Assembly: GCA_963662265.2 (NCBI GenBank)
Contig: CAXXHA010000032.1
Span: 96,001-160,000 of the forward strand
Length of the DNA: 64,000 nucleotides
Direction: 5' to 3'
Origin: Spirochaetia bacterium
GTDB lineage: Bacteria > Spirochaetota > Spirochaetia > CADAEX01
The translations under genes and the position numbers were made by a program. The notes under the pieces are model-generated. The model saw only the letters and a list, made by a program, of their open reading frames with translations. It did no database searches and had not been told where the DNA came from. Positions 25,968 to 64,000 of the stretch are shown here, in pieces; within the stretch, counting starts at the first letter, position 1, and the number at the start of each line of letters is the position of its first letter.

Positions 25968-25973
25968 CTGTTA

Positions 25974-26780
25974 TCAGCCGAGTTTTGAGGCTTTTTCTCT
26001 GCAGGCCCTTACAGCATCTATGACAGAATATCTGAAACTGTTTTTTTCAAGAACCTGAACTGCCTCTATAGTTGTACCGCCCGGTGAACAGACCATGTCT
26101 TTAAGTTCGCCCGGATGCTTTCCTGTTTCCCTTACAACTCTGGCTGAACCGAGTACAGCCTGAGATGCAAGCTTATATGCAGTTGCCCTTGGAAGTCCCT
26201 CAAGGACTGCCCCGTCTGCGAGAGCTTCTATAAACATATAGACATATGCCGGAGATGAGCCTGAAACAGCAGTACAGACATCAATATACTTCTCATCAAT
26301 TACTTCTGTTAAACCGAAGCTCTGGAATATTTTTTCGACATATCCCAGTTCTTCATCTGTTACATTCCTGCCCCTGCAGAGAACGCTCATCCCTTCTCCG
26401 ACAAGAGCGGGAGTGTTAGGCATTGTCCTGATGACTTTAACAGGGAATGAGAAGTATTTCTCAACCGATTCAACAGTTATACCTGCTGCAATTGTAACAA
26501 TGACTGTTTTCTCAGACACCTTTTTATTGATTTCATCAAGAACATACTTGTATATATCCGGCTTTACAGCAAGAATTATTATTTCTGAATTCTCAGAAAG
26601 CCTGCAGTTATCAGCAGTCACATCAATTCCCGGAAAATCCTTTTCCATTAAAGAAAGAGATTCCGGGTTTTTATCAGAAACAATTATTTCGCCGGCACAG
26701 GCAAAACCGGAGGATATAATTCCCCCGATAATTGCCCGGCCCATGTTTCCGGTACCAATTATTCCTATTTTATATTTCAT
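25974..26780 (-). CDS. proC: Pyrroline-5-carboxylate reductase
   Basis: Motifs IGTGNMG, LAVKP, RTMPNTP, SGSSPAY and VCSPGGTT. Confidence 0.95.
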   Translation of the reverse strand: MKYKIGIIGTGNMGRAIIGGIISSGFACAGEIIVSDKNPESLSLMEKDFPGIDVTADNCRLSENSEIIILAVKPDIYKYVLDEINKKVSEKTVIVTIAAGITVESVEKYFSFPVKVIRTMPNTPALVGEGMSVLCRGRNVTDEELGYVEKIFQSFGLTEVIDEKYIDVCTAVSGSSPAYVYMFIEALADGAVLEGLPRATAYKLASQAVLGSARVVRETGKHPGELKDMVCSPGGTTIEAVQVLEKNSFRYSVIDAVRACREKASKLG

Positions 26781-26802
26781 TTAAACACCTTTATCTTAAG
26801 TT

Positions 26803-29166
26803 TCAGCAGCCGAAATTCTGTTCAGTACGGTTGATAATCTCATCCTGAAGAGGTTTTTCAAGATTATTGAAATAATCGCTGTATCCTGCAACTCGGACAA
26901 TAAGATCTGAATACTGTTCAGGATTCTCCTGTGCCTTGAGCAGAATTTTCTTGTCAACAACATTGAACTGAATATGATGACCATCAAGTTTGAAATAAGA
27001 TCTTATCAGGGCAACTAGTTTGTCAATATTACTGTCCCCCTCAAGAACAGACGGAGAGAATTTCTGGTTGAGCAGGGTTCCTCCTGTTCTCAAATGGTCC
27101 ATTTTGGCAGCAGATTTCACTACAGCTGTAGGCCCGTTTCTGTCAGCATCTGTAGCAGGAGAAATACCTTCAGAAAGAGGCATACCGCTCTTCCTTCCGT
27201 CAGGTGTTGCACCGATTACTGAACCGAAATAAACATGGCATGTTGTAGGAAGCATGTTGATTCTGTACTGTCCACCATTCATTGTAGGTCTTCCGTCAAC
27301 AGAATCAAAATATGAATCAAAAATCATCTTCATCAGGTCATCAGCATAATCATCATCATTTCCATATTTGGGAGTCTTGTTCTTGAAGAGATTATGGATG
27401 GAAGGATCCTGAAAATCGTTATCAAGCGCTTCAAGAAGCTCTTTCATGGAAAGATTTTTTTCATCAAAGACATGTTTTTTTATGGAAGAAAAACTGTCAG
27501 TAATAGATCCTATACCTACTCCCTGAATATATCTCGTGTTATACCTGGCCCCGCCTGAATTATAATCTTTTCCCTCTTTAATACAGTCATCTATAATTAC
27601 AGAGAGAAAAGGTACCGGCATATAGTTGGAATAGATTTTCTCAATTGTATTATTGCCGTGAATCTTGATATTTATGAAATAATCCAGCTGCTTCTTGAAA
27701 GCATTGAAGAAATCATCAAATGACTGAAAATCTTCTGCTTTTCCTGTTTCAAGACCGAGTTTTTTACCAGTCATTTTATCAAGACCGTTGTAAAGAGTAA
27801 TTTCCATTATCTTGGTCAGGTTCATGTAGCCTGTAAGGATATATGATTCTTTACCGAATGCGCCTGTTTCAACACATCCGCTTGTTCCGCCGTCACGGGC
27901 ATCTTCAATTTTCTTTCCGGCTCTAACCATTTCAGAGACAACAGCATCAGCATTAAAAACTGAAGGCTGACCCCATCCCTCACGGATAACTTCGCATGCC
28001 CTTTTTACAAACTTGTTTGGATTCTTCTTGCTTACCTGTACATTTGAACTGGGCTGAAGAAGATGCATATCGCTTATAACATCAAGAACAAGGTAGGTAA
28101 CATCATTTACACCATCTTCCCCTTCTGCAGTAAGCCCGCCTGAATTGATATTGGCAAAATCTGTATATGTACCACTTTCCTTCAGAGTCACACCTACTTT
28201 TGGAGGTGCAGGCTGATTATTGAACTTGACCCAGAGGCATTCAAGGATTTCCCTTGCCTGATCCCTGTCGAGAGTTCCCTCTTCTGTTTCCTTTCTGTAA
28301 AAAGGATAGAGGTGCTGATCAAGCCTTCCGGGATTAAAGGAGTCCCAGTTATTCATTTCAGAAACAACAGCTATATGAACAAACCAGTACATCTGGACAG
28401 CCTGCTCAAATGTTTCAGGCGGATAAGCTGGTACTCTTCGGCAGTTGAGAGCTATTTTTTCAAGCTCACTCTTTCTGACCGGATCTTTTTCAGAAGCTGC
28501 CTTTTCCGCAGCATAATCAGCATAACGCCCGGCATACTTCATGATTGCATCACAGGTAACAGCCATTGCATCAAGCTGTTCCTTTTTTTCAAATGCTTTG
28601 GGATCATTCAGAAAATCAAGTTCTCCCGCAGCTTTTTCTATATCTTTTTTGAAATCAAGAAAACCTCTTTTATATATCTTACCATCAGCAACAGTATGGC
28701 CGGGGCCCCTCTGCTCCATGAATTCTGTGAAAATTCCTGCTGAATAACATTCTTTCCATTCATCAGTCATGGAAGAGAGTATTTTACCTCTCAAAGCCCT
28801 GTTTTCCCAGAAAGGAATTATTTCATTTTTCTGATACTCAAAAATTTCATCAGATACTTTATAGGAAATTTTCTTCCTTTTATTCATTATCTCGAAATCA
28901 TCCAGAGTATGACAGCATAATTCAGGATATGTGGAAGTGGCAGCAGGCCTCTCACCTCTTTCGCCGACTATAATTTCTCCATCATTAATACAGAGCTCCT
29001 TGTTTTCCATAATATTTTTAAAAACAAGAGCCCGCAGCATTGGGATTGATACTGTTCCTTCATATTTTTTATAAACTTCAGTAACAAGTTTAGCTCTCTC
29101 TATAGAAATACTCGGGACAGCGTTTAGACTCTGTTCTCTGAGCTTTATTACCCTTTCATTCATCAT
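26803..29166 (-). CDS. hypD: Glycyl radical enzyme trans-4-hydroxy-L-proline dehydratase
   Basis: HypD-type motifs QRGPGHTV, WDSFNPGRLD, ESGTYTDFAN, GGTSGCVETG, MLPTTCH and VRVAGYS; proC lies immediately downstream. Confidence 0.92.
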   Translation of the reverse strand: MMNERVIKLREQSLNAVPSISIERAKLVTEVYKKYEGTVSIPMLRALVFKNIMENKELCINDGEIIVGERGERPAATSTYPELCCHTLDDFEIMNKRKKISYKVSDEIFEYQKNEIIPFWENRALRGKILSSMTDEWKECYSAGIFTEFMEQRGPGHTVADGKIYKRGFLDFKKDIEKAAGELDFLNDPKAFEKKEQLDAMAVTCDAIMKYAGRYADYAAEKAASEKDPVRKSELEKIALNCRRVPAYPPETFEQAVQMYWFVHIAVVSEMNNWDSFNPGRLDQHLYPFYRKETEEGTLDRDQAREILECLWVKFNNQPAPPKVGVTLKESGTYTDFANINSGGLTAEGEDGVNDVTYLVLDVISDMHLLQPSSNVQVSKKNPNKFVKRACEVIREGWGQPSVFNADAVVSEMVRAGKKIEDARDGGTSGCVETGAFGKESYILTGYMNLTKIMEITLYNGLDKMTGKKLGLETGKAEDFQSFDDFFNAFKKQLDYFINIKIHGNNTIEKIYSNYMPVPFLSVIIDDCIKEGKDYNSGGARYNTRYIQGVGIGSITDSFSSIKKHVFDEKNLSMKELLEALDNDFQDPSIHNLFKNKTPKYGNDDDYADDLMKMIFDSYFDSVDGRPTMNGGQYRINMLPTTCHVYFGSVIGATPDGRKSGMPLSEGISPATDADRNGPTAVVKSAAKMDHLRTGGTLLNQKFSPSVLEGDSNIDKLVALIRSYFKLDGHHIQFNVVDKKILLKAQENPEQYSDLIVRVAGYSDYFNNLEKPLQDEIINRTEQNFGC

Positions 29167-47526: not shown

Positions 47527-49833
47527 ATGAAAATTATAAAAGACAGGAGATTAAGCATGAAAAAAATATCAGATGCAATAATCAGATACAGATACCTTAT
47601 AATTGCTCTATACGCCGCAGTCACAGTACTGTCACTCATGCAGCTGAAGAATATTGAAGTGGATCCGGAAGTGAAAAACATGCTTCCCAAACATATTCAG
47701 AGCAGAGTAGACACAGACAGAATTGAAGATATTTTCGGGGGAACAGACCTCCTGATGGCTGTCTTTGAATCAGATAATATTCTTGAAGCAGAAACCCTGA
47801 AAAGGATAAAAAACATATCCCGCGAAATTAGCCGTCTTAACGAAGTTGATAAAGTGATGTCGCTTTTCGAACTCAAGGATATATCTGGAGAAGAGGGATA
47901 TATGCTTGTTGAACCTGCAGTTGACAGAATACCTTCCTCTCCCGAAAAAGAAGCCCGGCTTAAGGAAAGGCTTAAGAATAATGATCTCGTATATAAAATA
48001 GTTATATCTGAAGATTTCAGAGTTACAGCAGTTATCGCAACAATAACAGAAAATGTTTCTGACATTGAAATTGTCAGTAAATTAAAAGGAATTGTTGACA
48101 AGTTTCCGGGAAATGAAAAAGTTTATTACGGCGGCATGCCTGTTACAAGAATCGATGTAAGCAGGGATATAAAAACAGATATACGAAACTTCCTCCCCGG
48201 GGGAATCCTGATTATGCTTGTATTTCTCTATTTCTCCTTCAGGCAGCTCAGGGGCGTAATTCTTCCATTTCTGGTAGTTGTTATGTCTATTATTCTTTCC
48301 ATGGGGCTTATACCGGTATTCGGATGGAAAATGTCAATGCCTATAATACTGCTTCCTGTAATAATGATTGCAATTGCAAATGATTACGGTATTCATATGA
48401 TTGCAAAATACCAGGAGGACAACACAGAGGAAAACAGCCTTACAAACAGGCAACTTGCTTCAAAAATGTTTCAGAGTCTCGGCAAACCTGTTATTGCAAC
48501 AGGTCTCACAACAATTGCAGGGATGCTCTGTATGCTTTCCCATATCATAATGCCGGCAAAGCAGCTTGCTGTTTTAGCAGCAATAGGTATTGCATATGCA
48601 CTGTCTGCAAGCCTTCTTTTTATTCCGGCAGTAACATCTATTATGAGAAACGCACAACCTGTAAAAAGCGGGAAAAAGGTTCATATACTGGAAAGGCTGT
48701 TAAACCTGTTTGCAGATTCAGTTATAAGACATCCAGGCAAAATAATAATAGTTTTTATTTCTGTAACTGTAATCCTGGCAGGAGGCATTTTCCTTGTAAA
48801 AATTGATGCAAACCCCGAGAAGTATTATCCGGAGAACCACCCGGTTGTTGTCAGCTCAAATATAATAAATAACAATCTCGGAGGAAGCCAGAATATATCT
48901 GTTATGTTCTCAGGAGATATAAAAGACCCTGATATGATGAAAAAAATTGACAGCTATGAGAATAAATTTGAAGAACTTGATTATGTGGGAAACACCTCAT
49001 CCATTGCAACAGCAGTTCATGAAATGTCGAAAGCAATCAATATGCCGGGAGAGCAGTACTATGATGTAATTCCTGATTCCAGAAATGCAATTGCCCAGTA
49101 TTTTGAACTTTACAACATGAGCGGAGATCCCGAGGATTTTGACAAGCTTGTTGATTTCCCTTATGAAAACTCACACCTGATGGTAAGAATAAACAATGCT
49201 GATACCCCGGCAATAAAAGGAGTTGCAGATAAAATAAGGCAAATGACAGAGAATGATCCTGAGGTTACAGCAATAGGCGGATGGGGTATGATTTTCACAG
49301 ACCTGGCAGATCATATTGTAAAAGGACAGTTTATGTCACTGTTCTTCTCAACAGTGGTTGTAGCTGTAATGCTTATGATTCTGTTCAAATCTTCCAGGGG
49401 AGGCCTTTTTTCAATAATCCCTCTTGTAATGTCTATTATAATACTTTTCAGCCTCATGGGGCTTCTTAAAATCGAGCTGAATATTGCCACAGCGCTTCTC
49501 TCGTCAATTATGATCGGTGTGGGGATAGATTACACCATTCATTTCATATGGCGCTACAAAGAAGAGCTTGAAGCAGGGAAAAGCAGGGAGGAAGGAATCA
49601 GGACAACACTTACAACAACTGGAAGAGGAATCATATTCAATGCTTTATCAGTTATTGTAGGATTTATCGTGCTTATATTTTCATCATTCATGCCGGTAAG
49701 ATTTTTCGGATTCCTCGTTGTTATCTCAATTTTCTCATGCCTTGCAGGGGCTCTTCTTTTCATTCCTGCTTTATGCCTCAAATACAAACCTTCATTTCTG
49801 GAAAAATATACAAAGGGAGAAAAATATGTTTAA
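47527..49833 (+). CDS. MMPL/RND-superfamily transporter
   Basis: Two repeats with TM4/TM10 motifs AIANDYGIH and GVGIDYTIH, and GLTTIAG. Alternative start at 47557. Confidence 0.9.
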   Translation: MKIIKDRRLSMKKISDAIIRYRYLIIALYAAVTVLSLMQLKNIEVDPEVKNMLPKHIQSRVDTDRIEDIFGGTDLLMAVFESDNILEAETLKRIKNISREISRLNEVDKVMSLFELKDISGEEGYMLVEPAVDRIPSSPEKEARLKERLKNNDLVYKIVISEDFRVTAVIATITENVSDIEIVSKLKGIVDKFPGNEKVYYGGMPVTRIDVSRDIKTDIRNFLPGGILIMLVFLYFSFRQLRGVILPFLVVVMSIILSMGLIPVFGWKMSMPIILLPVIMIAIANDYGIHMIAKYQEDNTEENSLTNRQLASKMFQSLGKPVIATGLTTIAGMLCMLSHIIMPAKQLAVLAAIGIAYALSASLLFIPAVTSIMRNAQPVKSGKKVHILERLLNLFADSVIRHPGKIIIVFISVTVILAGGIFLVKIDANPEKYYPENHPVVVSSNIINNNLGGSQNISVMFSGDIKDPDMMKKIDSYENKFEELDYVGNTSSIATAVHEMSKAINMPGEQYYDVIPDSRNAIAQYFELYNMSGDPEDFDKLVDFPYENSHLMVRINNADTPAIKGVADKIRQMTENDPEVTAIGGWGMIFTDLADHIVKGQFMSLFFSTVVVAVMLMILFKSSRGGLFSIIPLVMSIIILFSLMGLLKIELNIATALLSSIMIGVGIDYTIHFIWRYKEELEAGKSREEGIRTTLTTTGRGIIFNALSVIVGFIVLIFSSFMPVRFFGFLVVISIFSCLAGALLFIPALCLKYKPSFLEKYTKGEKYV

Positions 49834-52756: not shown

Positions 52757-55216
52757 CTATTTCATATCAATTCCAAATTCAACTCGCCTGTTTTTCCACC
52801 AGATTGACTTGTCTTTTGTTGAAGTCACAGGTTTTTTCCCGCCGAAGAATTCAATTCTGATTCTGTCTTCAGGAATTCCCTCATCCATGAGTGCCTTCTT
52901 GACTGATAAGGCTCTTCTTTCTGTTAAAGGAATAAGTACTGTCTCCTCCCTTGCCTCTTTATTGCTTTTTGAACTGTGAAAAACATTAAGAGCATGACCT
53001 TCAAGCACTATAGTATAATCGGGATATTTTTTTGAAAGGGATGCAACCTTCCTTATCGACTTCATATTCTCATCTCCGGCTGATTTTCCCCTTGAATAGA
53101 GACTATGTTTGTACGCCGAGAAAATTATATTGGGAACTTTTATGTAATACCTTCCGTTTACAAGTTCTGCAATTATATCGATTGTAAAATCACCTTCGCA
53201 TACAGCTCTGTTTCCGTTCATATCAACAAGCTCAAGTGAAGCGTCAAATCTGCTGCCTGACTCAACTTCATCAGCTATATAGTCCTCTCCGTAAAGCACA
53301 ATACCTTCATCAGAAAGTCCGCTGCCGTCAGCCTCATCCTCTTCCCCGCTTTCATCCTTAAGCTTCAGTATCCACTTATAAATACCGCTATCATCCTTAA
53401 CATTTGGATCTATATAAACCTGGCCGTCAAGAACTTCTCCGTTAACTGCAAAAGGTGTTGCAGTTATTACAAGATCTGTTTCAGGAGGAGTAAGGTCGTA
53501 GAAGTATTTAAAGAAATGCTGTGATTTGCTTCCGTTTTCATAAGCTGCGGTAAATGATACGTTATAATCACCCTCTTCAGCCTCATCCCTGCTTCCGGGA
53601 ATTATAATCATTTCAGGAAAAACACCTTCACCGGATTCTTCATAAATAACATTACCGTCTGTATCACTTACCTTGAAAGACCACATTTCAATTCCGCCTG
53701 TTGAATCAGATTCGACTTTGAATGCAGCAATACCATCAATCTGTTTTTCAATCATTTCCGCGCCTGGAATATTAACAAGCTGGGCTTTCTTGTCAGCCCG
53801 GTCAATGGTCAGTTTCTTTTTTTCAGGCACATAGGGATTACCTGCAAGATCTTCAAAATATGTTTCAAGGTAGTAGTCGCCGTCAGCAAGCTCTTTTCCA
53901 TCTTCATCAGTACCGTCCCAGACAATAAGAGAAGTTGTTTCCTCGCTTGTCATTTCACCTATTGAATTGCCATCGCTGTCAGTTATCTGCCCTTTCCATT
54001 TGACAATCTTGTTTGATTTCATAGAAATTTCAGTAGTATCCCTGTTTCCGCTTCCGTTAGGAGAAAATACAGGATTGCTTACCTTGAAATCAACAACAGG
54101 AGCAGTGGTATCCAGATACACAGTCTCTGTTTTCACAATCCTGGCACCGTTTTCATATTCGCTTGAAAAGCCCAGGGTATATGAACCCTGCGGAAGTTTT
54201 TCCCCCTGCTCTCCACGGCCGTCAATTACAGCCTCATAAATTCCAGGCTCTGCACCCTTGTCCGATAGGATCACATTGCCTTTTGAATCTGCCATTGAAA
54301 CAGACCAGCCGACAAATCCTTCTTCGGTTTTCTGTCCGAATGTTGCTATTATAGTATCTTTATTCCCATCATTGTTCGGTGAAAAATATGTATCTGTAAG
54401 TTCAAAAACCACATCTGCAAGAGTTGTATCAAGGATAAATCCGGATAATGATTTTTCCTCCATTTTATTACCGGCAAGGTCTGTTGAATTAATTCTGTAA
54501 CTGTATAATCCGTCAGCTGCAGGATTTCCGTTATTATCAAGCCCGTCCCATTCCACATTGGGAAGAGAAGTGTTTTCCCACCTGAAAGTCTTTACAACAT
54601 TACTGTCCTCATCAAGCATCTCCCCTGTCCATAGGGATTCATCTGTGGATTTTTCCTGCTTTATAACAAGAACATCAAGATTTCCATCGTTATTCGGTGA
54701 AAAAATCACCTTGTCAGGTTTTACAAGTTCAACTGACGGGGGAGCAACATCAACAACAAAGTCATCAAGTGCAACATCGTCAATATTTCCTGATGAATCC
54801 TTGACCCAGAGTTCCACATTATAAATACCGTCAGGAACCTTGTTGCCTTCTGTATCAAACCCGTCCCATTTCACTGACTTTTCAAGTGTAAATTCTGAAT
54901 ATTTTGTAAATATCCTTATAAACCAGTTAATATCAGATTTTTCAGTTTCAATAACTTCCGTTATCACATCGCCTGATGAGTTTTTGATTCGGAGCCCGTA
55001 TTCAGGTACATACCCCTTCTTGCTCTTAACATAAATCTTTACTTTGAAATCAAGTTCAGATGAATCCTGAACACCATTACCGTCAGGAGAAATATACTGT
55101 GTTCCCGAAGTAGCAACTTCAAGATCAGGAACTTCCTTGTTTCCTCCCGCGGAAATACTGAATGTCATAAAAATAAATAGACATAAAGCAATCACTATTA
55201 TTCTGAAACTTTTCAA
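52757..55216 (-). CDS. OmpA-family protein with repeated FlgD Ig-like domains (spirochaete type)
   Basis: Repeated FSPNxDGxxD and WDGxDxxG..DGxY motifs; C-terminal LEGHA...LTERRA...NRRVEF. Confidence 0.88.
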   Translation of the reverse strand: MKSFRIIVIALCLFIFMTFSISAGGNKEVPDLEVATSGTQYISPDGNGVQDSSELDFKVKIYVKSKKGYVPEYGLRIKNSSGDVITEVIETEKSDINWFIRIFTKYSEFTLEKSVKWDGFDTEGNKVPDGIYNVELWVKDSSGNIDDVALDDFVVDVAPPSVELVKPDKVIFSPNNDGNLDVLVIKQEKSTDESLWTGEMLDEDSNVVKTFRWENTSLPNVEWDGLDNNGNPAADGLYSYRINSTDLAGNKMEEKSLSGFILDTTLADVVFELTDTYFSPNNDGNKDTIIATFGQKTEEGFVGWSVSMADSKGNVILSDKGAEPGIYEAVIDGRGEQGEKLPQGSYTLGFSSEYENGARIVKTETVYLDTTAPVVDFKVSNPVFSPNGSGNRDTTEISMKSNKIVKWKGQITDSDGNSIGEMTSEETTSLIVWDGTDEDGKELADGDYYLETYFEDLAGNPYVPEKKKLTIDRADKKAQLVNIPGAEMIEKQIDGIAAFKVESDSTGGIEMWSFKVSDTDGNVIYEESGEGVFPEMIIIPGSRDEAEEGDYNVSFTAAYENGSKSQHFFKYFYDLTPPETDLVITATPFAVNGEVLDGQVYIDPNVKDDSGIYKWILKLKDESGEEDEADGSGLSDEGIVLYGEDYIADEVESGSRFDASLELVDMNGNRAVCEGDFTIDIIAELVNGRYYIKVPNIIFSAYKHSLYSRGKSAGDENMKSIRKVASLSKKYPDYTIVLEGHALNVFHSSKSNKEAREETVLIPLTERRALSVKKALMDEGIPEDRIRIEFFGGKKPVTSTKDKSIWWKNRRVEFGIDMK

Positions 55217-55475
55217 TATTTTAACCTCCCCCCTGTTTCAGGGTTTTGCTGTTAATGCCATTATAGCATGGTTTCCCTGTACAAAGGGCAAACCATAGAA
55301 AAACAACCGGAAAATAAAAAAGTTACTCACTTTTTTATTCAGTCATTAAAAAAATCACATATCTTCATTCATTTTACAAAAGTATAATAAATATACAGAT
55401 ATAATTCTATTCATTATTGTAATAAGTGAGGGCTCCAGGTTTTCAGAGGTTAGATAGATATAAAATTGCAGCTAA

Positions 55476-56438
55476 TCAATATTTAAATTCATATATATTA
55501 CGATCAACAATGTTTATCAACTGTTTTCCTTCAATATATGCTTTAATGTTTTGTTCAATAATAGAAAGAGTTTTATTTAATGTGTGAGGAAGAAAATCAT
55601 GCCCTGCAATATGAGGAGTTATTATTATGTTTTTAGTATTCCATATTTTATGGTTACGAGGAAGAGGTTCATTTTCAAAAACATCTAATGCTGCTCCTGA
55701 TATTTTATTGTTTTCAATCGCTTCACATAAAGCATTAATATCGAGAGTATTACCGCGGCCTACATTTATCAATACAGCATCCTGTTTAATTCTGGAAATC
55801 ATTTCTTTATCCATAATATTTATTGTCTCTGGAGAAGACGGTAAAGACATGGAAACAATATCAGCACGATGTATAATTTTTGCCAAATCATTGAAAGAAT
55901 ACATCTCATCCGCATATTTATTGTTTTTATTAATAGACCTTCTAACACCAATAATGTGTACACCAAAAGCTTTAAGCATTTTTGCATACTGAGTTCCAAT
56001 ATCTCCCATGCCAAGTATCAAAACAGTAGCATCCTGAAGCATTTTTTCGTTGCCTTCATCATTCCATAAACAATTATTCTGGTTGTCCCTGTAAATATTC
56101 AGTTTTTTATACAGAGATAAAGTTAAAGCTAACATAAACTCTGACTGGGCTTCCCCATAAGCACCGCTTGCATTAGTAACAATAACACTATCTTTCAGAA
56201 TATTATCCTTAAGATATGCATCAGCGCCTGCAGTAATCAGTTGGATCCATTTCAGCTTTTCTGCGTGCTCCAATAATTCTAAAGGTGGATTCCCAATTAT
56301 TATTTTCGAATTTGATATTTGATCGTGGTTTATATTGCAATCTGATGCAAACTCAAAATCTATATATTTTTCAAACTGAGAAAGCTTATTTTTCTGGGAA
56401 AGATCAAGAGGAATAATAACAAGAACTTTGGTTTTCAT
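55476..56438 (-). CDS. D-2-hydroxyacid dehydrogenase family protein
   Basis: Motifs ILGMGDIG, INVGRG, LDVFENEPLP and ITPHIAG. Likely start MKTKV at 56438. Confidence 0.9.
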   Translation of the reverse strand: MKTKVLVIIPLDLSQKNKLSQFEKYIDFEFASDCNINHDQISNSKIIIGNPPLELLEHAEKLKWIQLITAGADAYLKDNILKDSVIVTNASGAYGEAQSEFMLALTLSLYKKLNIYRDNQNNCLWNDEGNEKMLQDATVLILGMGDIGTQYAKMLKAFGVHIIGVRRSINKNNKYADEMYSFNDLAKIIHRADIVSMSLPSSPETINIMDKEMISRIKQDAVLINVGRGNTLDINALCEAIENNKISGAALDVFENEPLPRNHKIWNTKNIIITPHIAGHDFLPHTLNKTLSIIEQNIKAYIEGKQLINIVDRNIYEFKY

Positions 56439-56486
56439 AACAATCCTATGCAATATTTAATATTATTTCACATTAAAAATACTTAT

Positions 56487-57335
56487 CTACAATCCCAGAT
56501 AATAACCTTTGTTAAGAAAATCTTCCATTTCCTTAAGTGTATCAATTGCTCTGGAATGATCAAGCTGTGCTATTGCTGCAGAAATATAATTTATCAGACA
56601 CATGGGAGCAACATAGGAATTTTTGAATGAAATGCCGCCGACACTGCATGGTAAAATGATATCACCGTAATTTTCTATATCTGAAATATTCTGACTTGTA
56701 AACAGAATAACCTTAACATTTCTTTTTCTTAGCCATAATATTAAATTTGCGGTTGTTTTCGAGTATCTTGGAAATAAAAAAGCTACACAAATATCCTGTT
56801 CATTACAGCCGATCAATTCTTCAGGAAAGATCATTCCGACAGACTGTACTAACCTTACATTGGGTCTTATCTGACCAAGACGGGAGGTCATATAATGAGC
56901 TAAGGCAAAAGAACTTCTCATACCAAGAACATAAACATTTCTTGCATTACTTACTTCATCAATAGTAACAGATAAATCTTTTTGAGATATTTTTGTCATT
57001 GTAGTTGTAATATCGGCTATATCATTCTGCATAGTATCCATAAGTAACTGGTCAGGTGTCCCTGTTTCGATTTTGTTAATCAATCTCTCTGGCAGACTTG
57101 CTTTTGTAACCAGTCCTTTCTGGACCTCCTTCTGCATATCGGAATAGCCATTATATCCCATCATTCTTGCAAAACGGATAATCGTAGTCGTACTTACACC
57201 GATTTTCATTGCAACATCATCTAGAGTGGAAAAGGCAAATTTATCTGGATTATCAATAAAATAATTAGCTACTGTTTTTTGTGAATACGTAAGATCATTA
57301 AACCGCTCTGCAACTTTATTTGAAAAATCAGACAT
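56487..57335 (-). CDS. RpiR/MurR family regulator (HTH + SIS)
   Basis: Motifs VSTTTIIRFARMMGYNGY, LGMRSSF and FPRYSK. Confidence 0.92.
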   Translation of the reverse strand: MSDFSNKVAERFNDLTYSQKTVANYFIDNPDKFAFSTLDDVAMKIGVSTTTIIRFARMMGYNGYSDMQKEVQKGLVTKASLPERLINKIETGTPDQLLMDTMQNDIADITTTMTKISQKDLSVTIDEVSNARNVYVLGMRSSFALAHYMTSRLGQIRPNVRLVQSVGMIFPEELIGCNEQDICVAFLFPRYSKTTANLILWLRKRNVKVILFTSQNISDIENYGDIILPCSVGGISFKNSYVAPMCLINYISAAIAQLDHSRAIDTLKEMEDFLNKGYYLGL

Positions 57336-57363
57336 TTTCTTCCCCTGCTTTAAACCATTTTTA

Positions 57364-57401
57364 AAAGTATGTATAAATAAGTTATTATTTATACATACTT
57401 T
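57364..57401. terminator. Long AT-rich inverted repeat after the enolase-like gene
   Basis: AAAGTATGTATAAATAA-GTTA-TTATTTATACATACTTT. Confidence 0.55.
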
Positions 57402-57435
57402 ATCAATATTTTCTTCAGTTAGCTACTAAATTATT

Positions 57436-58707
57436 TTAAAATCTTACAATACTGCTAATATCTGTCATCTGACAACCGGGGGTTTCATCACATGCTCTCA
57501 TCAGAAAATTAAGTTTATCTATCCTCTCTCCCGACCGAGGTGCTCCATTCTTCTGAAAAGCAACTTCAAGACCGACAGAAATATCCATTACAATATCACC
57601 GACAACTCCTCCTGACCTTCCTGAAGGAACTGTAAACATATTGTGTTCATTTGCAATTTTATGTGTTTCAAGAGCCTCTGTTATAGTACCGACCTGATTT
57701 GGTTTCAGGACAAATCCTTCAGCTGCATTAGTTTCTATTGCCCTATAAAGCCTTTCTTTGTTGGATGCTATAAGATCATCACCAATAATAATTGTTCTTT
57801 CAAGTTCTCTAACAGCCTTAGTATAATTTCCCCAATCATTTTCATCCAGAAGATCTTCTATAAAAACTATAGGGAACTGTTCTGTCAGTTTTTTTGTATA
57901 GTCAATTATTGTCTGGGCTCCAACCCTTTCATCCTTAAGCAGATATGTGTTTGTTTTTGCATCATACATTTCACTTGAAGCACAATCAAGAGCAAATGCC
58001 ACTTTATCATGATACCCGCATTCATCAACTGCATCCTGCATTAATTGCAATGCAATTACAGGATCATTTGTTGGAGTTGCCCAGCCATAAGATCGGGCAA
58101 CCTGAGGTGTTTTCCCCATATATTTTTCAATTATTACCCCAAGTTTACTAAAAACCTTTACAGCTATTTCAACAGCTTCATATATAGTATCAGCTTTATA
58201 GGGGACAATAAGGAATTCGTTAAAAGCAAGGGTAACATCCCCATATTTACCGCCATTTATAACATTAAAAGATGGAACTGGAACTGTCCTGATATCTCTT
58301 CCGCAGAGATATCTATAAGGAGTCATTTTTGAAATCTGAGAAGCTGCTCTAAGTGCAGCTATAGAAGTACTGCAGATAGCATTTCCCCCAAGCACGCTTT
58401 TATCAGAGGTACCATCCAGTTCAATCATTTTTCTGTCAAGAGCTTCCTGGTCCTGAATATCCATACCTATCAATGCAGGAGCAATAATTTTCTTCACATT
58501 TTCAACTGCTTTATGAACACTTAAACCATCATACTCAGAAGGATTATTATCTCTCAGGACAAATGATTCATATTTCCCGACAGAACTCCCTGTCGGAGAA
58601 CTTCCATAACCCTTAAATCCATTTTCTGTAGTAATATCAACTTCAACCATAGGACGGCATTTACAATCTATTATCTGCCTCGCTGTTACATTTTTAATCT
58701 TTTCCAA
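57436..58707 (-). CDS. Enolase-fold protein with a non-canonical active site
   Basis: Full-length enolase-like layout (LDCASSE, IED, GDD, KPNQVG) but GDEGG is ARSYG, NGGxH is NGGKY and SHRS is SGRS. Confidence 0.88.
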   Translation of the reverse strand: MEKIKNVTARQIIDCKCRPMVEVDITTENGFKGYGSSPTGSSVGKYESFVLRDNNPSEYDGLSVHKAVENVKKIIAPALIGMDIQDQEALDRKMIELDGTSDKSVLGGNAICSTSIAALRAASQISKMTPYRYLCGRDIRTVPVPSFNVINGGKYGDVTLAFNEFLIVPYKADTIYEAVEIAVKVFSKLGVIIEKYMGKTPQVARSYGWATPTNDPVIALQLMQDAVDECGYHDKVAFALDCASSEMYDAKTNTYLLKDERVGAQTIIDYTKKLTEQFPIVFIEDLLDENDWGNYTKAVRELERTIIIGDDLIASNKERLYRAIETNAAEGFVLKPNQVGTITEALETHKIANEHNMFTVPSGRSGGVVGDIVMDISVGLEVAFQKNGAPRSGERIDKLNFLMRACDETPGCQMTDISSIVRF

Positions 58708-58728
58708 TCTATCACTCTCCTACTTAAT

Positions 58729-60130
58729 TTATTTTTCAGGTACATACATTATGTTAAAATCACAGAGGTTTGTTCCTGTATTCCCTGTGAAAACAGTATC
58801 TTCAAGTTCTACCAATGCTTCATAACAGGAATGCCCCCTGAGTGATGCATGTATATCAACATTTTTTTCCAAAGCTGTTTTATAAGTTGTTGAATCAGTT
58901 ATTCCTCCAGCTATATCAGCTGTTCCATCAGTACCTTCAGAATCTATAGATAAAAGGCATGCACCTTCTGTTTTTGCAGCTAAAAGGGCAAAACTCAAAG
59001 TTTCTTCCTGTCCCCGGCCCGCCATGGCCTTTAATGGTATTGTTATCCAGAATCTTTGTAGTTGCCTCACCTGATGAAAGAATTACACAGGGAGCCTTAA
59101 CAGGATTTCCATATTCCTGTATTTCCCTTGCAATAGATGCAAATATTGTACCTACATCCCTGGCTTCTCCCTCCAGAAATGAGGTAAGAATTACAGCATT
59201 AATACCCATATCCTCTGCAATATGTTTTGCATATATACATGAATCAGGAAGTGTATTCAGAAGGTAATATGTGTTATCAGGGAATGCTTTTGGAGTTTCC
59301 CCTTCAGGACCAGCATTCATAAGGTAATCAACAACATTTTTAGGAAGCCTGTCAGCCACATCATAATCACGGATAACAGCTCTTGCATCATCAAGAGTAG
59401 TCATATCAGGCCCCATAGGTGTACTTTTATATGCTGCATATGGAATTCCAATATCGCCTGTTGCTGCAGATCCTACAGCATCACTTATCCCGAACCCTAT
59501 CAGTTCAGCACCTCGTTTCTGTATCCTTTTAGCAAGCATTCCCCCGTTAAACTGGGATATATGTCTTCTTATGGAATTTATTTCATAAATATTGGCACCT
59601 GACTTAAGCATTACATCAGTCACTGCAATTTCATCATCCAGAGATATTCCATCTATAGGACAGCTCATCAGGGCAGAACTGCCTCCGCTTATAACAACAA
59701 TAAAAAGGTCATCAGGTCCTGAATTATCCACTATTTCAAGTATTTTTTTGCAGGCATTATAGCCAGCTTCATTGGGAAGGGGATGCCCCCCCACATAAAC
59801 TTCTGTTTTATTAAAAACATCTGTTTCTTCTGCGATTTTTACAATAGCAATACCACGGGTAAGCTTATCCCCAAGAATCTCATCTACTGCCATTGCCATA
59901 TGGTTACAGGCTTTCCCCGCACCCAGAAGATATATATTTTTCTTTTTTGAAAGGTCCCAGCTTTTTGTACCTATATGGAGAATATCTCCATCCAGATGCA
60001 TGATGCTTTTAATCCTTTCTTTAGAATCAAGTTTCTGAAGCGTTTTTTCAGTAATGTCCAGTACTATCTCCCTGGATTTTTTATCTCCATGTGATAATAT
60101 CTGTTCTCTGTTGCGTATTTTGACCGACAT
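58729..60130 (-). pseudogene. Glycerate 2-kinase-like (MOFRL/TtuD family) kinase with one +1 frameshift
   Basis: GAGKA, GHPLP, ISGGSSAL and ISDAVG lie in one ORF; SEGTDG and TGNTGTNLCD in the next frame. Removing one C from the run at 59012-59015 gives GHGGPGQEET. Confidence 0.85.
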
Positions 60131-60244
60131 TTCAAACTCCTTCGGTTTATTTATCATGTTTTGTATATATTACTATATGTTGCAGTATTAACTACTTTGA
60201 TATAAAACATATTAACTATACTTCTATATCATACTATGGTTATT

Positions 60245-61540
60245 TTACGTTTCTGACAGTTCAGGCAAGCTCTTCTGAGACTGCGGATAAAATAGAATCT
60301 TCGGATTGTCCTTAGCAGACAAATCTACCGCTTTATTAATCATATCATTAACATTTTCAGCCGGAATCATGTGCAGTTTTTCTATTTCAGATTTTGAAAT
60401 ATTGGGAGAATATACAACTATATTAACATTTTTCTTAAGTATCTTTGAAAGCAATAATGAATGGTCCATTTGGATCCTGTAATTATCTTTCAGATAATCA
60501 ATAACCCCCTCAAGAGAAGGAGACTGTTCAAATGGCTTCATCATATCTGGTGAATTTATCCCCTCCCGACATTCACAGTAAAGAGCAACTGTAATTGAAT
60601 CATCGAGTATATCTGTAAGTGCTATAAGAGCCTTTACTGACTGATAAAAATCAATATTAAGAGGACTACCAGGTGTTGTTACAATGATATCAGGTTTCTT
60701 GAAACTGTTCTTGCAATACTTTCTAAGATAATTCACCGCTGTCTTATGTGATAAAAGCATTGGCCCTGAAAAAACTGCGGCTGTCTGGTTAACAGAATTC
60801 TGAACAAAATTAACACAAAAGTCGAGACGGAAAAACTCTGCTGTTTCTATCATGTCATTACTTACAGGATTTCCCTCCAGACAACCAGGTACGGCCTTTT
60901 CCGAAGAAATCATTTTAACTGAATGATTTGTAAGAATAGTTTTTTCAGAAGAAATTCCAGGCAATACAGATTTTCTACCTCCTGAAAAACCTGCGAATTC
61001 ATGCGGTTCCACTTTTCCAATTGAAACATGGATATCACATTCATAAGCCCTTTTGTTAACCTCAACAGGAGTACCAAATGAGGTTATACCCAGGTTTATC
61101 AGATTACTGCTATCAAAAGGGGTATGGTTTTCTATTCTCATCTTGGAATAAAGTTCCGGCCCGATTATTTTCAGCATTTCCTCTTCTGTTGCCTCCCTGT
61201 GGACACCAAGAGCAACAATAAAAAGTATATCTGACAATGTTATTCCACCGTCTGTCAACTCCTTTACTATTATTTCAGCAGCGCTTTGTGTCGGTACATT
61301 TCTGGTTGCATCTGAGACAATTATACATGCACTTTTTGCATTACGTTCAAGTACAATATCCTTAAGCCGCTTCCCCCCCAGAGGGTTATAAATACTGTTT
61401 AAAAATTCCTTTTCATTTATTGCAGTAATATCGCTATTTCCTGTTACCCCTGCAAAACATACTTCAGGAATTTCTATTGAGATTTTTTCCACTTCATCCT
61501 TATAATGAACTTTGTTATCAGCAATAGAAATAGAATACAT
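60245..61540 (-). CDS. larA: LarA-family (nickel-pincer) alpha-hydroxy acid racemase/epimerase
   Basis: Motifs DATR, ALGVHR, ENH, EPHEFAGFSGGRKS, NH and YQSVK. The substrate is not necessarily lactate. Confidence 0.88.
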   Translation of the reverse strand: MYSISIADNKVHYKDEVEKISIEIPEVCFAGVTGNSDITAINEKEFLNSIYNPLGGKRLKDIVLERNAKSACIIVSDATRNVPTQSAAEIIVKELTDGGITLSDILFIVALGVHREATEEEMLKIIGPELYSKMRIENHTPFDSSNLINLGITSFGTPVEVNKRAYECDIHVSIGKVEPHEFAGFSGGRKSVLPGISSEKTILTNHSVKMISSEKAVPGCLEGNPVSNDMIETAEFFRLDFCVNFVQNSVNQTAAVFSGPMLLSHKTAVNYLRKYCKNSFKKPDIIVTTPGSPLNIDFYQSVKALIALTDILDDSITVALYCECREGINSPDMMKPFEQSPSLEGVIDYLKDNYRIQMDHSLLLSKILKKNVNIVVYSPNISKSEIEKLHMIPAENVNDMINKAVDLSAKDNPKILFYPQSQKSLPELSET

Positions 61541-61567
61541 TCTCTAAATACCTCAATATCCTGTTCT

Positions 61568-61601
61568 AAAAATGTGCTCTGATAAATCAGAGCACATTTT
61601 T
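61568..61601 (-). terminator. Hairpin/terminator between dctQ and larA
   Basis: AAAAATGTGCTCTGAT-AA-ATCAGAGCACATTTTT. Confidence 0.65.
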
Positions 61602-61617
61602 TTAATTATAGTATCTG

Positions 61618-62166
61618 CTAAACATCCTCAGTAATAAGACCGGTATCTTCAATTTCATGATCAGATATACCAACAACGGCGGCTTCTTCGCCAGGTCTGA
61701 ATAAATCAAAGAGAATATTTCTCAATTCATACAAAGACATCACAGCAAAAGAAACAGAAACTGCAGCATATTTTACAGCATAAGGAAATCCCAGAGCGGG
61801 AGTTACCCTGCTACCTGATCTGATTATCATAAGTATACCGATGTAAAAAACAACAACAGATGCCAGAAACATGATAATCTGAACACTGATGTTCATTATA
61901 TGTTCCACTTTTTTGGGGAACATCTGCTTGAATACAACTATGCTTACATGTTCTCTACGAACAGCAATATAGGAGGCGCTCAAGAGACAAAACCATACCA
62001 GCAGTATTTTTAACAATTCTTCTGACCAGGTCAGCGAACTGTTTAATACATAACGGCTGAATATATGGAGCAGAGCAATTGCCAGCATACATATTCCTAT
62101 AGCTATTATCATAATCATAACTATTCTGCCTGTCTTTCTAACAACATTATTAAGAGTGTCTAACAT
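61618..62166 (-). CDS. TRAP transporter small permease (DctQ)
   Basis: Four TM helices; motifs SRYVLNSSLTWSEEL and HVSI. Confidence 0.9.
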   Translation of the reverse strand: MLDTLNNVVRKTGRIVMIMIIAIGICMLAIALLHIFSRYVLNSSLTWSEELLKILLVWFCLLSASYIAVRREHVSIVVFKQMFPKKVEHIMNISVQIIMFLASVVVFYIGILMIIRSGSRVTPALGFPYAVKYAAVSVSFAVMSLYELRNILFDLFRPGEEAAVVGISDHEIEDTGLITEDV

Positions 62167-62189
62167 AATACTCCTTCCCGATTATTTAA

Positions 62190-63266
62190 TTATTTTACAC
62201 TTTTAGCTGTGTCTGCTTTTACAGCTTCAATCCCTGCGATGAATTCATCTACAAATTCACTTCCAATTTCTTCTTTAACCTTATCAGAAACAACTGGCTG
62301 AGAAACTTTTTTTATAGCTTCAAGATTTGCCAGTGTCAAAGAATTGACCTTCATACCTTTATTGGTGAGCTGTTCTACAATAAGTGCTTCCCTGTTCGCA
62401 TTGATAAAACGGCTGTAATTCTGTCCGAGAATTGCACCTTTTTCAATGATTTTCTGATATTCTCCTGGAAGAGAGTTAAACCATTTAAGATTTGTCACAA
62501 GTGGCATAGCATCATAAATATGGTTGGTAAGAGATACATAATCCTGAACTTCATACATGTTTACTTCCCATATATTTGCAAGAGGATTTTCCTGTCCATC
62601 TACAATTTTCTGTGACATTGACAAATAAAGTTCAGACCAGGGAACAGGTGTCGGATTTGCTCCGAGTGCAGAAAAATTTGCCATGTGCATTGGAGCTTCC
62701 ATTGTTCTTATTTTAAGTCCTTTAAAATCATCTATTGACTTGATAGGTCTTACATTATTTGTCGCATGCCGAAAACCATTTTCCATATAAGCAAGACCTT
62801 TTAAACCTGATTCTTCGAGTGTATCCATCAGATCTGAACCTACTTTACTGTCAAAAGTAGCCCACGCCTGCTGGTAGTTATCAAAAAGAAAGGGAATATC
62901 AAGTACTGCAAATTTTTTATCAAAAGTTGTAATAGGTCCGATTGATGCAGTAGCCATTTCAAGAGTACCATTCTGAACCTGTTCAACTGATTCGATTTCA
63001 GCTCCCAGCTGGCTGTTGGGATAAATTTTGACCTCAACCTTTCCATCTGTTTTGTCTTCAATATATTCTTTCATAACACCCAGTCCTAGAGTCTGCGGGT
63101 GATCAAGAGAATTGCAAGCAGAAATTCTGATTTCAAAGGATCCAAGATCTTCAGCAGATCCTGCTTCTGCTTTTTTAGAATTTCCACCGCATGCTATTAT
63201 TGAACACATAACAAGCAGCACCATTATCACCTTAAGTGATTTCATAATAAAGTTTTGTTTTTTCAT
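62190..63266 (-). CDS. TRAP substrate-binding lipoprotein (DctP)
   Basis: Lipobox IIAC; motifs YPNSQLG, ENGFR, GLKIRTM and DGQENP. Confidence 0.92.
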   Translation of the reverse strand: MKKQNFIMKSLKVIMVLLVMCSIIACGGNSKKAEAGSAEDLGSFEIRISACNSLDHPQTLGLGVMKEYIEDKTDGKVEVKIYPNSQLGAEIESVEQVQNGTLEMATASIGPITTFDKKFAVLDIPFLFDNYQQAWATFDSKVGSDLMDTLEESGLKGLAYMENGFRHATNNVRPIKSIDDFKGLKIRTMEAPMHMANFSALGANPTPVPWSELYLSMSQKIVDGQENPLANIWEVNMYEVQDYVSLTNHIYDAMPLVTNLKWFNSLPGEYQKIIEKGAILGQNYSRFINANREALIVEQLTNKGMKVNSLTLANLEAIKKVSQPVVSDKVKEEIGSEFVDEFIAGIEAVKADTAKSVK

Positions 63267-63289
63267 TAGGTAATTCTCCTTTTTTTTTA

Positions 63290-64000
63290 TTAATAACCCA
63301 TCATTTTTGGCAGAAACAGACTTATTTCTGGAACAAAAGTAACGAGTAACAAAACACTAAAAGTTGTCAAGATAAACGGGATTGCCTCTTTGACAGTATC
63401 TTCGACCCTGACATTAGCAATAGGACTTGTAACGAACAATGTAATTCCGAATGGAGGAGTTGCAAGTCCAACTACAAGATTGACACATATAACTACTGCA
63501 ATGTGCAGCGGATGAATACCAAGCTTCCAGGCAATAGGAGCAATTATGGGAGCAAGTATTACAATAGATGCATAATCATCCATAAAACATCCTGTTATCA
63601 GGAGAAGAATATTTACCATTAAAAGGAACATCCATGGGGGTATTGAAGACAATGGCTCAATTACATAAGAGAGAACCTGCTCATTTGCAATTGCCCAGGC
63701 CATAACACTTCCGGCACCAGCTAGAAGGAGCACAAGACCCGATGTTAAGGCGGCTTCCTTGAATATTTCAGGAATATCTTTAAGCTTAACAGACTTATTT
63801 ACAAAGAAACCAAGAAATGCACTATATAAAACAGCCACTGCAGAGGCCTCTGTAATACTGAAGACTCCACCGAATATCCCACCAAGAATTATTACAGGAA
63901 GCATCAGTGCAGGAAGAGCTTTTTTTGCAGCAACAATTTTTTCTTTTAATGAAGTTTTAGGGAAAGAGGGATAATCTCTTTTTTTGGATACAAAGTGTGC
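63290..64000 (-). CDS. TRAP transporter large permease (DctM); 5' end outside the window
   Basis: Motifs PVIILGGIFGGVFSITEA and GLATPPFGITLF; the frame stays open to the window edge. Confidence 0.92.
   Translation of the reverse strand, partial: AHFVSKKRDYPSFPKTSLKEKIVAAKKALPALMLPVIILGGIFGGVFSITEASAVAVLYSAFLGFFVNKSVKLKDIPEIFKEAALTSGLVLLLAGAGSVMAWAIANEQVLSYVIEPLSSIPPWMFLLMVNILLLITGCFMDDYASIVILAPIIAPIAWKLGIHPLHIAVVICVNLVVGLATPPFGITLFVTSPIANVRVEDTVKEAIPFILTTFSVLLLVTFVPEISLFLPKMMGY

Follow-up and report, generated by a model that had tools for sequence, protein, structure and literature searches.

This analysis concerns a 64,000-nucleotide stretch of a Spirochaetia bacterium genome (assembly GCA_963662265.2, contig CAXXHA010000032.1, positions 96,001 to 160,000), referred to below as the window. 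Its right-hand end holds eight genes of a nine-gene operon-like unit, which includes a divergent 2-hydroxy-acid kinase of the MOFRL family and Eno2, a paralogue from the enolase subgroup. The kinase-Eno2 module is a widespread, uncharacterised gene pair. Eno2 is not the housekeeping enolase, and its alignment indicates that it keeps the enolate-forming machinery but is without the residues that handle the C3 hydroxyl. The unit is a horizontally acquired catabolic operon, in which, on a tentative reading, a C3 acid carrying nitrogen at C3 would be phosphorylated at O2 and cleaved by Eno2, acting as a lyase, to give phosphoenolpyruvate (PEP).

Eno2 and its kinase partner

Eno2 (57436..58707, minus strand, 423 amino acids) is composed of an Enolase_N (142 bits) and an Enolase_C domain (216 bits). 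Its score of 367 bits against TIGR01060 is over the cut-off of 300 and half the 723 bits of the housekeeping eno. The latter, a canonical gene for which the original prediction had advised a genome check, is present on contig C8 of the source genome. The five other carrier genomes checked all hold a canonical eno as well (650-720 bits), besides an Eno2 scoring 367-397 bits, the source genome included in this range.

The family was compared as 120 Eno2 members against 10 canonical enolases, and positions are given in yeast enolase numbering. Glu211, the catalytic acid, and His373 and His159, which lie with it around the C3 hydroxyl, are invariant in the canonical enolases. In Eno2, Glu211 is replaced by serine in 119 of the 120 members and the glycine after it by tyrosine in 117. 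His373 is exchanged for glycine in all 120, His159 for tyrosine in 117, and Gln167 for asparagine in 120/120. The description of the enzyme as an atypical enolase, made from the window alone, is thus borne out by the exchange of the glutamate and of both histidines across the family. The residues D241, E284, D310/D311, K335, R364 and K386 of Eno2 are invariant among 15 family members and align to canonical motifs. They correspond to the metal ligands Asp/Glu/Asp, to the catalytic base Lys345, to Lys396 and to the phosphate-binding Arg374.

The solved structures matching Eno2 are all canonical enolases, with about 38% identity or less. At least 120 Eno2 protein clusters were collected, with 62-100% identity, and the source names, where given, are enolase or phosphopyruvate hydratase. 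The copy of Brucella anthropi is named only "enolase C-terminal domain-like protein" by RefSeq. Another enolase-like gene, 33% identical to Eno2, is found in a genome of the same class about 2.6 kb from a MOFRL kinase gene (G049, C9:84900-89075). This neighbourhood may be a further variant of the pairing.

The kinase gene (58729..60157, minus strand) encodes a DUF4147 (205 bits) and a MOFRL part (74.7 bits), which fall in two frames in the window. The two parts share one frame once a single extra base at 59012 is removed. This base is absent from the contigs of all four public runs, which are otherwise identical to the window between 58600 and 60300; the runs cover two samples from two studies and may include the window's own source. 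Intact orthologues, 455-490 amino acids long, read KGHGGPGQE across the break. The frameshift is most likely an assembly error in an intact gene of about 475 amino acids, and a real pseudogene is ruled out by the run contigs. The same contig holds, outside the window, another MOFRL gene, this one of canonical type (C32, about 47900-49220). It too is split in two frames, so the assembly probably carries indel errors.

An intact orthologue of 471 amino acids aligns end to end with PH0495 and TM1585. The module kinase shares 32% identity with 27 canonical MOFRL kinases from the same class, compared with 74% within the module. The two groups have 67 conserved columns in common, and in 22 further columns each group is conserved for a different residue. 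Among the substitutions, Asn replaces the Lys of the KGG motif and Pro the Arg of GGRNQE, and the 22 family-specific columns substantiate the earlier notion of a variant kinase. The MOFRL domain of the module kinase reaches 74 bits compared with 106-140 bits in canonical kinases. Against curated equivalog models, both of them archaeal equivalogs, the kinase scores 143-180 bits, with cut-offs of 550 and 670.

A MOFRL glycerate 2-kinase followed by enolase is known from the non-phosphorylative Entner-Doudoroff branch and from tartrate and glycerate utilisation (TtuD-type). The module shares with this pair the two protein families and their order. It would also share the chemical logic, in which 2-O-phosphorylation of a 2-hydroxy acid is followed by Mg2+-dependent abstraction of the alpha proton and a beta-elimination that yields a phosphoenol acid. 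It differs by the missing catalytic Glu and His of Eno2 and the missing conserved Lys and GGRNQE Arg of the kinase. Furthermore, it is an extra copy beside the canonical eno and is tied genetically to an OCD/SbnB-like dehydrogenase and to glutamate dehydrogenase (GDH).

Ordinary D/L-glycerate use nevertheless has to be weighed. In such a pathway a TRAP transporter would import the substrate, LarA would convert L- to D-glycerate, the kinase would form 2-phosphoglycerate, and Eno2 would be an enolase isozyme producing PEP. The 2-hydroxyacid dehydrogenase would reduce hydroxypyruvate. All four enzyme families have these textbook activities, and Eno2 passes the TIGR01060 cut-off (367 versus 300). 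However, the Glu and His acting on the C3 hydroxyl are missing from Eno2 in 119-120 of 120 members, and a canonical eno is present in all six genomes checked. The kinase has lost its conserved Lys and Arg, and the source genome holds the second MOFRL gene of canonical type. Glycerate use is therefore considered improbable. The residue changes and the co-occurrence of the two genes support the intuition, already voiced in the original prediction, that a non-canonical kinase-enolase pair would act on something other than D-glycerate.

The conserved module and its recurrent neighbours

A scan of genome contigs with the single Eno2 protein gave no relative, whereas an alignment-based scan with one genome per species yielded 292 Eno2-encoding loci among 302 candidate stretches. 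The neighbourhood counts given here rest on 80 loci kept of the 292, with which the nine island proteins were compared by tblastn. These loci belong to Bacillota, Planctomycetota, Actinomycetota, Acidobacteriota, Synergistota, Desulfovibrionaceae, Treponema, rhizobia, Burkholderiaceae and Pseudomonas. Eno2 is also encoded on eleven plasmids of rhizobia and B. anthropi. In hundreds of species, among them gut Lachnospiraceae, Synergistaceae, Treponema, Planctomycetota, Actinobacteria, rhizobia and Burkholderiaceae, a gene called enolase or phosphopyruvate hydratase by annotation pipelines stands next to one called glycerate kinase or DUF4147. Both names, enolase and glycerate kinase, are probably wrong for this family. 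No paper on the module was found in a literature search, most subscription journals and supplements lying outside that search.

The C-terminal part of the kinase is present in 80/80 loci with 57-77% identity and always ends directly at the Eno2 start. Its N-terminal part is found in 78 loci (65-84% identity), the two misses being located at contig ends. In four loci, all from Clostridia/Eubacteriales (L059, L082, L093 and L099), kinase and Eno2 are fused to a protein of 903 amino acids with all four domains. Co-occurrence elsewhere had been named as a check on the proposed pathway, and for the kinase-enolase pair it holds in every locus and across many phyla.

The most conserved third partner is a gene of the OCD/mu-crystallin family, encoding an SbnB-like protein of 377 amino acids. 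It is found within 10 kb in 69/80 loci with 54-78% identity, and eight of the 11 loci without a match have shortened flanks. In the source genome it lies beyond the window end, at about 64642-65775 in extended window numbering. The eight genes listed in the original prediction are all there, whereas this partner was missed, being outside the window. The conserved unit consists of the kinase, Eno2 and the OCD-like protein, with or without GDH.

The OCD-like protein scores 450.6 bits against NF004848, over the cut-off of 362. Among solved proteins SbnB is nearest (4M54, E 7.6e-40), with archaeal alanine dehydrogenase and a pyrroline-2-carboxylate reductase next. Against the SbnB-family model TIGR03944 it stays below the cut-off (183.6 versus 326.9 bits). 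Five genomes with the kinase-Eno2 pair were checked for NF004848, and three have a protein over the cut-off. The genes in question lie 38 kb away on the same contig, just outside the flank, or beside the other module copy of that genome.

The remaining island genes are conserved less broadly. RpiR homologues are found in 25/80 loci (46-75% identity). An orthologous DctM is present in 17 loci (68-74% identity), and seven contain the DctM of a different TRAP system, with about 30% identity. Orthologous LarA occurs in 15 loci (43-54% identity) and a distant LarA in three (28-32%). The order OCD-DctM-DctP-DctQ-LarA recurs in Lachnospiraceae and Planctomycetota, and the unusual M-P-Q order of the TRAP genes is kept next to the OCD gene in other phyla. 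LarA and the TRAP transporter, which had been proposed as core steps of epimerisation and import, are thus optional accessories and represent one of several interchangeable front ends for uptake and racemisation. The 2-hydroxyacid dehydrogenase, which had been listed as part of the block, is not conserved: its homologues in seven loci share 24-30% identity and are not orthologous. The island protein falls below every NCBIfam equivalog cut-off.

GDH genes are present in 18 of the 80 loci. The enzyme is of the ELFV type in 15, and in 12 of these its gene is directly downstream of Eno2. An unrelated, large nicotinamide adenine dinucleotide (NAD)-specific GDH is encoded in three actinobacterial loci. 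It is the next gene after Eno2 in two of them, and the map of the third is obscured by antisense calls of open reading frames. GntR/FCD regulators were found in 15 loci and MocR-type regulators in 10. Among the carriers, AgcS proteins of the Na+/alanine type occur in four loci, and APC permeases, amino-acid ABC systems and DUF3100 are also present. Pyruvate kinase is encoded inside the cluster in two loci.

A further group of neighbours relates to ureido compounds and nucleobase rings. A YgeY-family M20 hydrolase is encoded in eight loci (representative 350 bits, cut-off 321) and a CN-hydrolase in two. Carbamate kinase (392 versus 358 bits) lies near the module in three loci, two of which also contain a carbamoyltransferase similar to ornithine carbamoyltransferase and a hydantoinase A gene. 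An operon of Acetivibrionales (L034, 2729-11266) encodes an NCS1 nucleobase permease, a PreT-like protein, PreA (581 versus 335 bits), dihydropyrimidinase (489 versus 393 bits), the kinase, Eno2 and RpiR, with a YgeY-like hydrolase and an OCD gene divergent from it. On plasmid pOANT01 of B. anthropi (L111, 10575-20672), a GntR gene is followed by those for the kinase, Eno2, OCD, a cupin, GDH, a tautomerase and pyruvate carboxylase. The OCD-like protein of B. anthropi is named "tyramine oxidase subunit B" by RefSeq, which is the legacy name of NF004848. A literature search found no paper using this name, and it looks unfounded.

For glycerate use, a gene similar to that of tartronate-semialdehyde reductase near the module in one locus is a favourable sign. 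Glycerate use gives no account, however, of the OCD-like gene found in 69/80 loci, of GDH (18/80), or of the amino-acid carriers and ureido-degrading neighbours.

Substrate and chemistry

Anatomy, conservation, residue changes and acquisition of the unit are shown by the data above and below; substrate and chemistry are inferred from the gene neighbours. A 2-hydroxy acid is expected, since a MOFRL kinase and LarA, and in some loci a 2-hydroxyacid dehydrogenase, would act on the substrate. AgcS, APC and amino-acid ABC carriers together with MocR regulators suggest that it behaves as a small amino acid. PreT/PreA, dihydropyrimidinase, the YgeY-like hydrolase, the CN-hydrolase and carbamoyltransferase or carbamate kinase suggest that it can originate by decarbamoylation once a nucleobase ring has been opened reductively. 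With pyruvate kinase and pyruvate carboxylase as neighbours, the end product is expected to be PEP or pyruvate. A nitrogen-bearing substrate is favoured because GDH, amino-acid carriers, MocR regulators and genes for the degradation of ureido compounds and pyrimidine rings recur. The simplest compound that fits all constraints of the neighbourhood would be isoserine (3-amino-2-hydroxypropanoate). The original prediction had proposed L-glycerate, threonate/erythronate and 2,3-dihydroxybutyrate. The neighbours speak for nitrogen instead and make these hydroxy acids less likely.

In the proposed scheme, an isoserine-type C3 carboxylate would enter through the TRAP system. Isoserine could be imported directly or be made from 2,3-diaminopropionate by the OCD-like enzyme in an NAD-dependent reaction, with the 2-hydroxyacid dehydrogenase as a possible helper. 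LarA would equilibrate the configuration at C2, and the kinase would phosphorylate O2. With its Mg2+/phosphate site and Lys base, Eno2 would then abstract the C2 proton and eliminate the nitrogen group at C3 instead of hydroxide, yielding PEP. In a variant of this scheme, the OCD-like enzyme would work as SbnB in reverse and join the C3 amine to 2-oxoglutarate. Eno2 would then expel glutamate, and GDH would regenerate 2-oxoglutarate. The direct participation of glutamate/2-oxoglutarate is suggested by two unrelated GDH types holding the same position. Alternatively, GDH could be the partner of an OCD-type deamination.

The variant relates the module to the synthesis of L-2,3-diaminopropionate by SbnA/SbnB (also VioB/VioK and CmnB/CmnK). 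Common to both are an OCD-like protein with SbnB as its nearest solved relative and the link to glutamate/2-oxoglutarate, suggested in the module by the recurrent GDH. The module differs in the low SbnB-family score (184 versus 327 bits) and in that no SbnA-like gene, encoding a pyridoxal 5'-phosphate (PLP) enzyme, was seen among the annotated neighbour families. Moreover, its context of carriers and regulators is catabolic and not biosynthetic.

A second point of comparison is the anaerobic reductive urate pathway, for which the available parts of two preprints describe XdhD, YgfK/UacX, SsnA, HyuA, YgeW/UacY, YgeY and YgeX (bioRxiv 10.1101/2025.05.19.654654 and 10.1101/2025.04.24.650524). In several loci the module is adjoined by related functions, namely YgeY-family, PreA/PydA-type, dihydropyrimidinase/hydantoinase, carbamoyltransferase and carbamate kinase genes. 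As far as the published route is described there, it passes to a C3 diamino acid, from which the PLP lyase YgeX gives pyruvate. YgeY yields diaminopropionate from albizziin, according to the part of the first preprint that was available (bioRxiv 10.1101/2025.05.19.654654). A term search of the available texts of both preprints gave no mention of enolase, glycerate kinase, cyclodeaminase or isoserine. YgeX is also found in four of five module genomes. The module as a replacement of diaminopropionate ammonia-lyase was considered and is unsupported, a bona fide lyase over the cut-off being present in these four genomes.

The LarA homologue and the binding protein of the TRAP system bear on the substrate from another side. 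LarA (60245..61540, minus strand, 431 amino acids; Lar_N 195 bits, LarA_C 44 bits) is a homologue of the nickel-pincer-dependent enzymes that racemise or epimerise 2-hydroxy acids. It falls below all six NCBIfam LarAH cut-offs, the best being the LarAH6 malate racemase model with 312 versus 500 bits, and belongs to an uncharacterised LarAH group. Among solved structures the malate racemase Mar2 (6D6Z) is nearest, and the columns of the His/His/Lys/His motif line up between the two. The motifs GVHRE, EPHEF..GGRK and TNH align with Mar2 and with a broad-spectrum LarA. The residues concerned are two catalytic histidines, the tethering lysine and the histidine that binds Ni. For the superfamily, the accessible portion of one study lists lactate, malate, 2-hydroxyglutarate, glycerate and hydrophobic 2-hydroxy acids as racemase substrates, with some homologues racemising glycerate efficiently, which would suit glycerate use (PMC11770544). 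The island LarA shares the domains, the aligned catalytic motif columns and the presence of larBCE in the genome with these racemases, and differs in staying below every curated cut-off. Judging by its conserved neighbours (OCD, TRAP or AgcS), it would act on a substrate not yet assigned.

DctP (62190..63266, minus strand, 358 amino acids; Pfam DctP 302 bits) has a lipoprotein-like N-terminus. Among solved structures 4P47 is nearest (E 9.6e-70); it is described as apo and ligand-free (PMC11668362), and a substrate therefore cannot be read from it. The hits that follow are proteins binding small hydroxy acids, according to the same paper (PMC11668362), and the more distant relatives bind 2-keto-3-deoxygluconate (KDG), pantoate, erythronate or isethionate.

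Two of these ligands, erythronate and pantoate, are bound by the better-characterised solved relatives of DctP and lend some weight to a 2,3-dihydroxy acid with four or more carbons (threonate, erythronate or 2,3-dihydroxybutyrate, for example). This acid, perhaps derived from a beta-hydroxy amino acid via the OCD-like enzyme, would be epimerised at C2 by LarA, phosphorylated at O2 and dehydrated by Eno2 to a phosphoenol-2-oxo acid. The invariant Tyr would replace Glu as the acid, and Gly and Ser would make room for the fourth carbon. The exchanges of Glu to Ser and His to Gly do enlarge the region around C3, with the invariant Tyr beside it. In addition, LarA homologues epimerise all stereoisomers of 2,3-dihydroxybutyrate, as stated in the accessible portion of PMC11770544. 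The gene context fits less well. No aldonate or tetronate genes were seen among the annotated neighbour families, and GDH, the YgeY-type hydrolase, PreT/PreA, dihydropyrimidinase and carbamate kinase are left unexplained. A C3 product agrees better with pyruvate kinase and pyruvate carboxylase as neighbours, and a C4 or larger substrate is judged unlikely.

The isethionate binder among the solved DctP relatives directs attention to a sulfonate route. Cysteate or 3-sulfolactate would be converted to 2-phospho-3-sulfolactate, from which Eno2 would eliminate sulfite to form PEP, a reversal of the ComA reaction on the scaffold of an enolase. Racemisation of sulfolactate would fall to LarA, and deamination of cysteate to the OCD-like enzyme together with GDH. 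Sulfite leaves without an acid catalyst, and Desulfovibrionaceae and Synergistaceae, represented by metagenome-assembled genomes, are among the carriers of the module. However, the module is often carried by aerobic soil Burkholderiaceae and rhizobia, and the nucleobase and ureido neighbours point elsewhere. Sulfite reductase, sulfite exporter and sulfo-lyase genes were not seen among the annotated neighbour families. Such a route is regarded as very improbable.

Several points also weigh against the preferred nitrogen-bearing C3 acid. Its identity is a deduction from neighbouring genes, and isoserine is, to our knowledge, not an abundant metabolite. True diaminopropionate ammonia-lyase coexists with the module in four of five genomes. 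In two of five genomes with the kinase-Eno2 pair, which may be incomplete, no OCD of the NF004848 type exceeds the cut-off; this weakens schemes that place the OCD-like enzyme between kinase and Eno2. The loss of the acid through the Glu to Ser exchange would not be obviously suited to an ammonium leaving group, and the invariant Tyr could instead take over as the acid if hydroxide departs from a bulkier dihydroxy acid. Among solved structures, the closest relatives of LarA and DctP have plain hydroxy acids as substrates or ligands (malate, erythronate, pantoate, KDG).

A single function is usually ascribed to the enolase subgroup. The boldest version of the preferred reading, which we regard as possible but rather doubtful, is that Eno2 provides the first non-enolase activity within the subgroup proper. 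It would be a C-N lyase for a 2-phospho-3-amino acid. With its dedicated kinase, it would provide a PLP-independent deamination route, leading to PEP from isoserine- or 2,3-diaminopropionate-type compounds that arise when purines or pyrimidines are broken down reductively. Glutamate might serve as the carrier of the leaving group, with 2-oxoglutarate added in a reductive step by the SbnB-like enzyme. If this is true, the textbook scaffold would gain a new reaction from a member whose acid catalyst has been replaced and which is tied to a kinase of its own. Through its link to the degradation of nucleobase rings and ureido compounds, the module suggests a missing step by which anaerobes and soil bacteria would route nitrogen-rich C3 fragments to PEP. 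It would also provide a testable physiological role for a LarA group and a TRAP binding protein that both lack an assignment.

The island in its genome

The module arrived in the source genome as part of a horizontally acquired block of about 10.6 kb, roughly window positions 55300 to 65950. The block is an insertion, because its left flank (an OmpA-like gene) and right flank (a Gate-domain gene) are only about 200-260 bp apart in both genomes of the same genus. Among 60 related genomes no Eno2 orthologue was found, and all matches have at most 39% identity, which is the level of canonical enolases. The G+C content of the island is 36.1% compared with 38.5-39.0% in the flanks, and its G+C content at third codon positions is 0.24-0.33 compared with 0.31-0.43. 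The AT-rich character ascribed to the block is thus real, but modest.

The original prediction had correctly stated that larB, larC and larE are missing from the window. The genome search places larC, larE and larB side by side on contig C23 (about 25421-28018), all over their cut-offs. Besides the island gene, three further LarA homologues are encoded on contigs C39, C29 and C3, giving four in total. From this cluster and the additional homologues it follows that the source organism invests in several nickel-pincer enzymes.

All genes of the window part of the block are on the minus strand, in keeping with the co-orientation described in the original prediction. The complete order is OCD/SbnB-like dehydrogenase, DctM, DctP, DctQ, LarA, MOFRL-type kinase, Eno2, RpiR and 2-hydroxyacid dehydrogenase, with intergenic gaps of 21-100 nucleotides inside the block. 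The three TRAP subunits DctP, DctQ and DctM are encoded together. The large membrane subunit DctM (63290..64000, minus strand) is represented in the window by its C-terminal 236 codons. The gene continues to about 64564, and the contig sequence beyond the window gives a protein of 424 amino acids. The small membrane subunit DctQ (61618..62166, minus strand, 182 amino acids) reaches 87 bits against Pfam DctQ. Downstream of Eno2 follow an RpiR/SIS-family transcriptional regulator with Pfam HTH_6 and SIS domains (56487..57335, minus strand, 282 amino acids) and, as the last island gene, the D-isomer-specific 2-hydroxyacid dehydrogenase (55476..56453, minus strand, 325 amino acids; Pfam 2-Hacid_dh_C 181 bits).

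Beyond the OCD-like gene, the neighbours are divergent or unrelated, namely the Gate-domain membrane protein, a methyl-accepting chemotaxis protein and serine hydroxymethyltransferase. A sigma-70-like, promoter-like site, TTGACA-17-TATACT, lies outside the window on the minus strand at about 65881-65909 in extended numbering, some 105 nucleotides upstream of the OCD-like gene. The promoter scan returned 31 sites compared with a mean of 36 in shuffled sequences, and hence no excess.

The protein bordering the island on the other side (52757-55216, 819 amino acids) matches the Lsa66 adhesin model only weakly (133 bits, cut-off 700) and contains FlgD-Ig, CHU_C/T9SS-type, Big and C-terminal OmpA domains. 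Within the operon, a terminator-like scan identified a perfect palindrome with a 15-bp stem, flanked by runs of A and T, in the gap between dctQ and larA (61568..61601). It could be a candidate bidirectional terminator or attenuator, or an operator to which a regulator binds.

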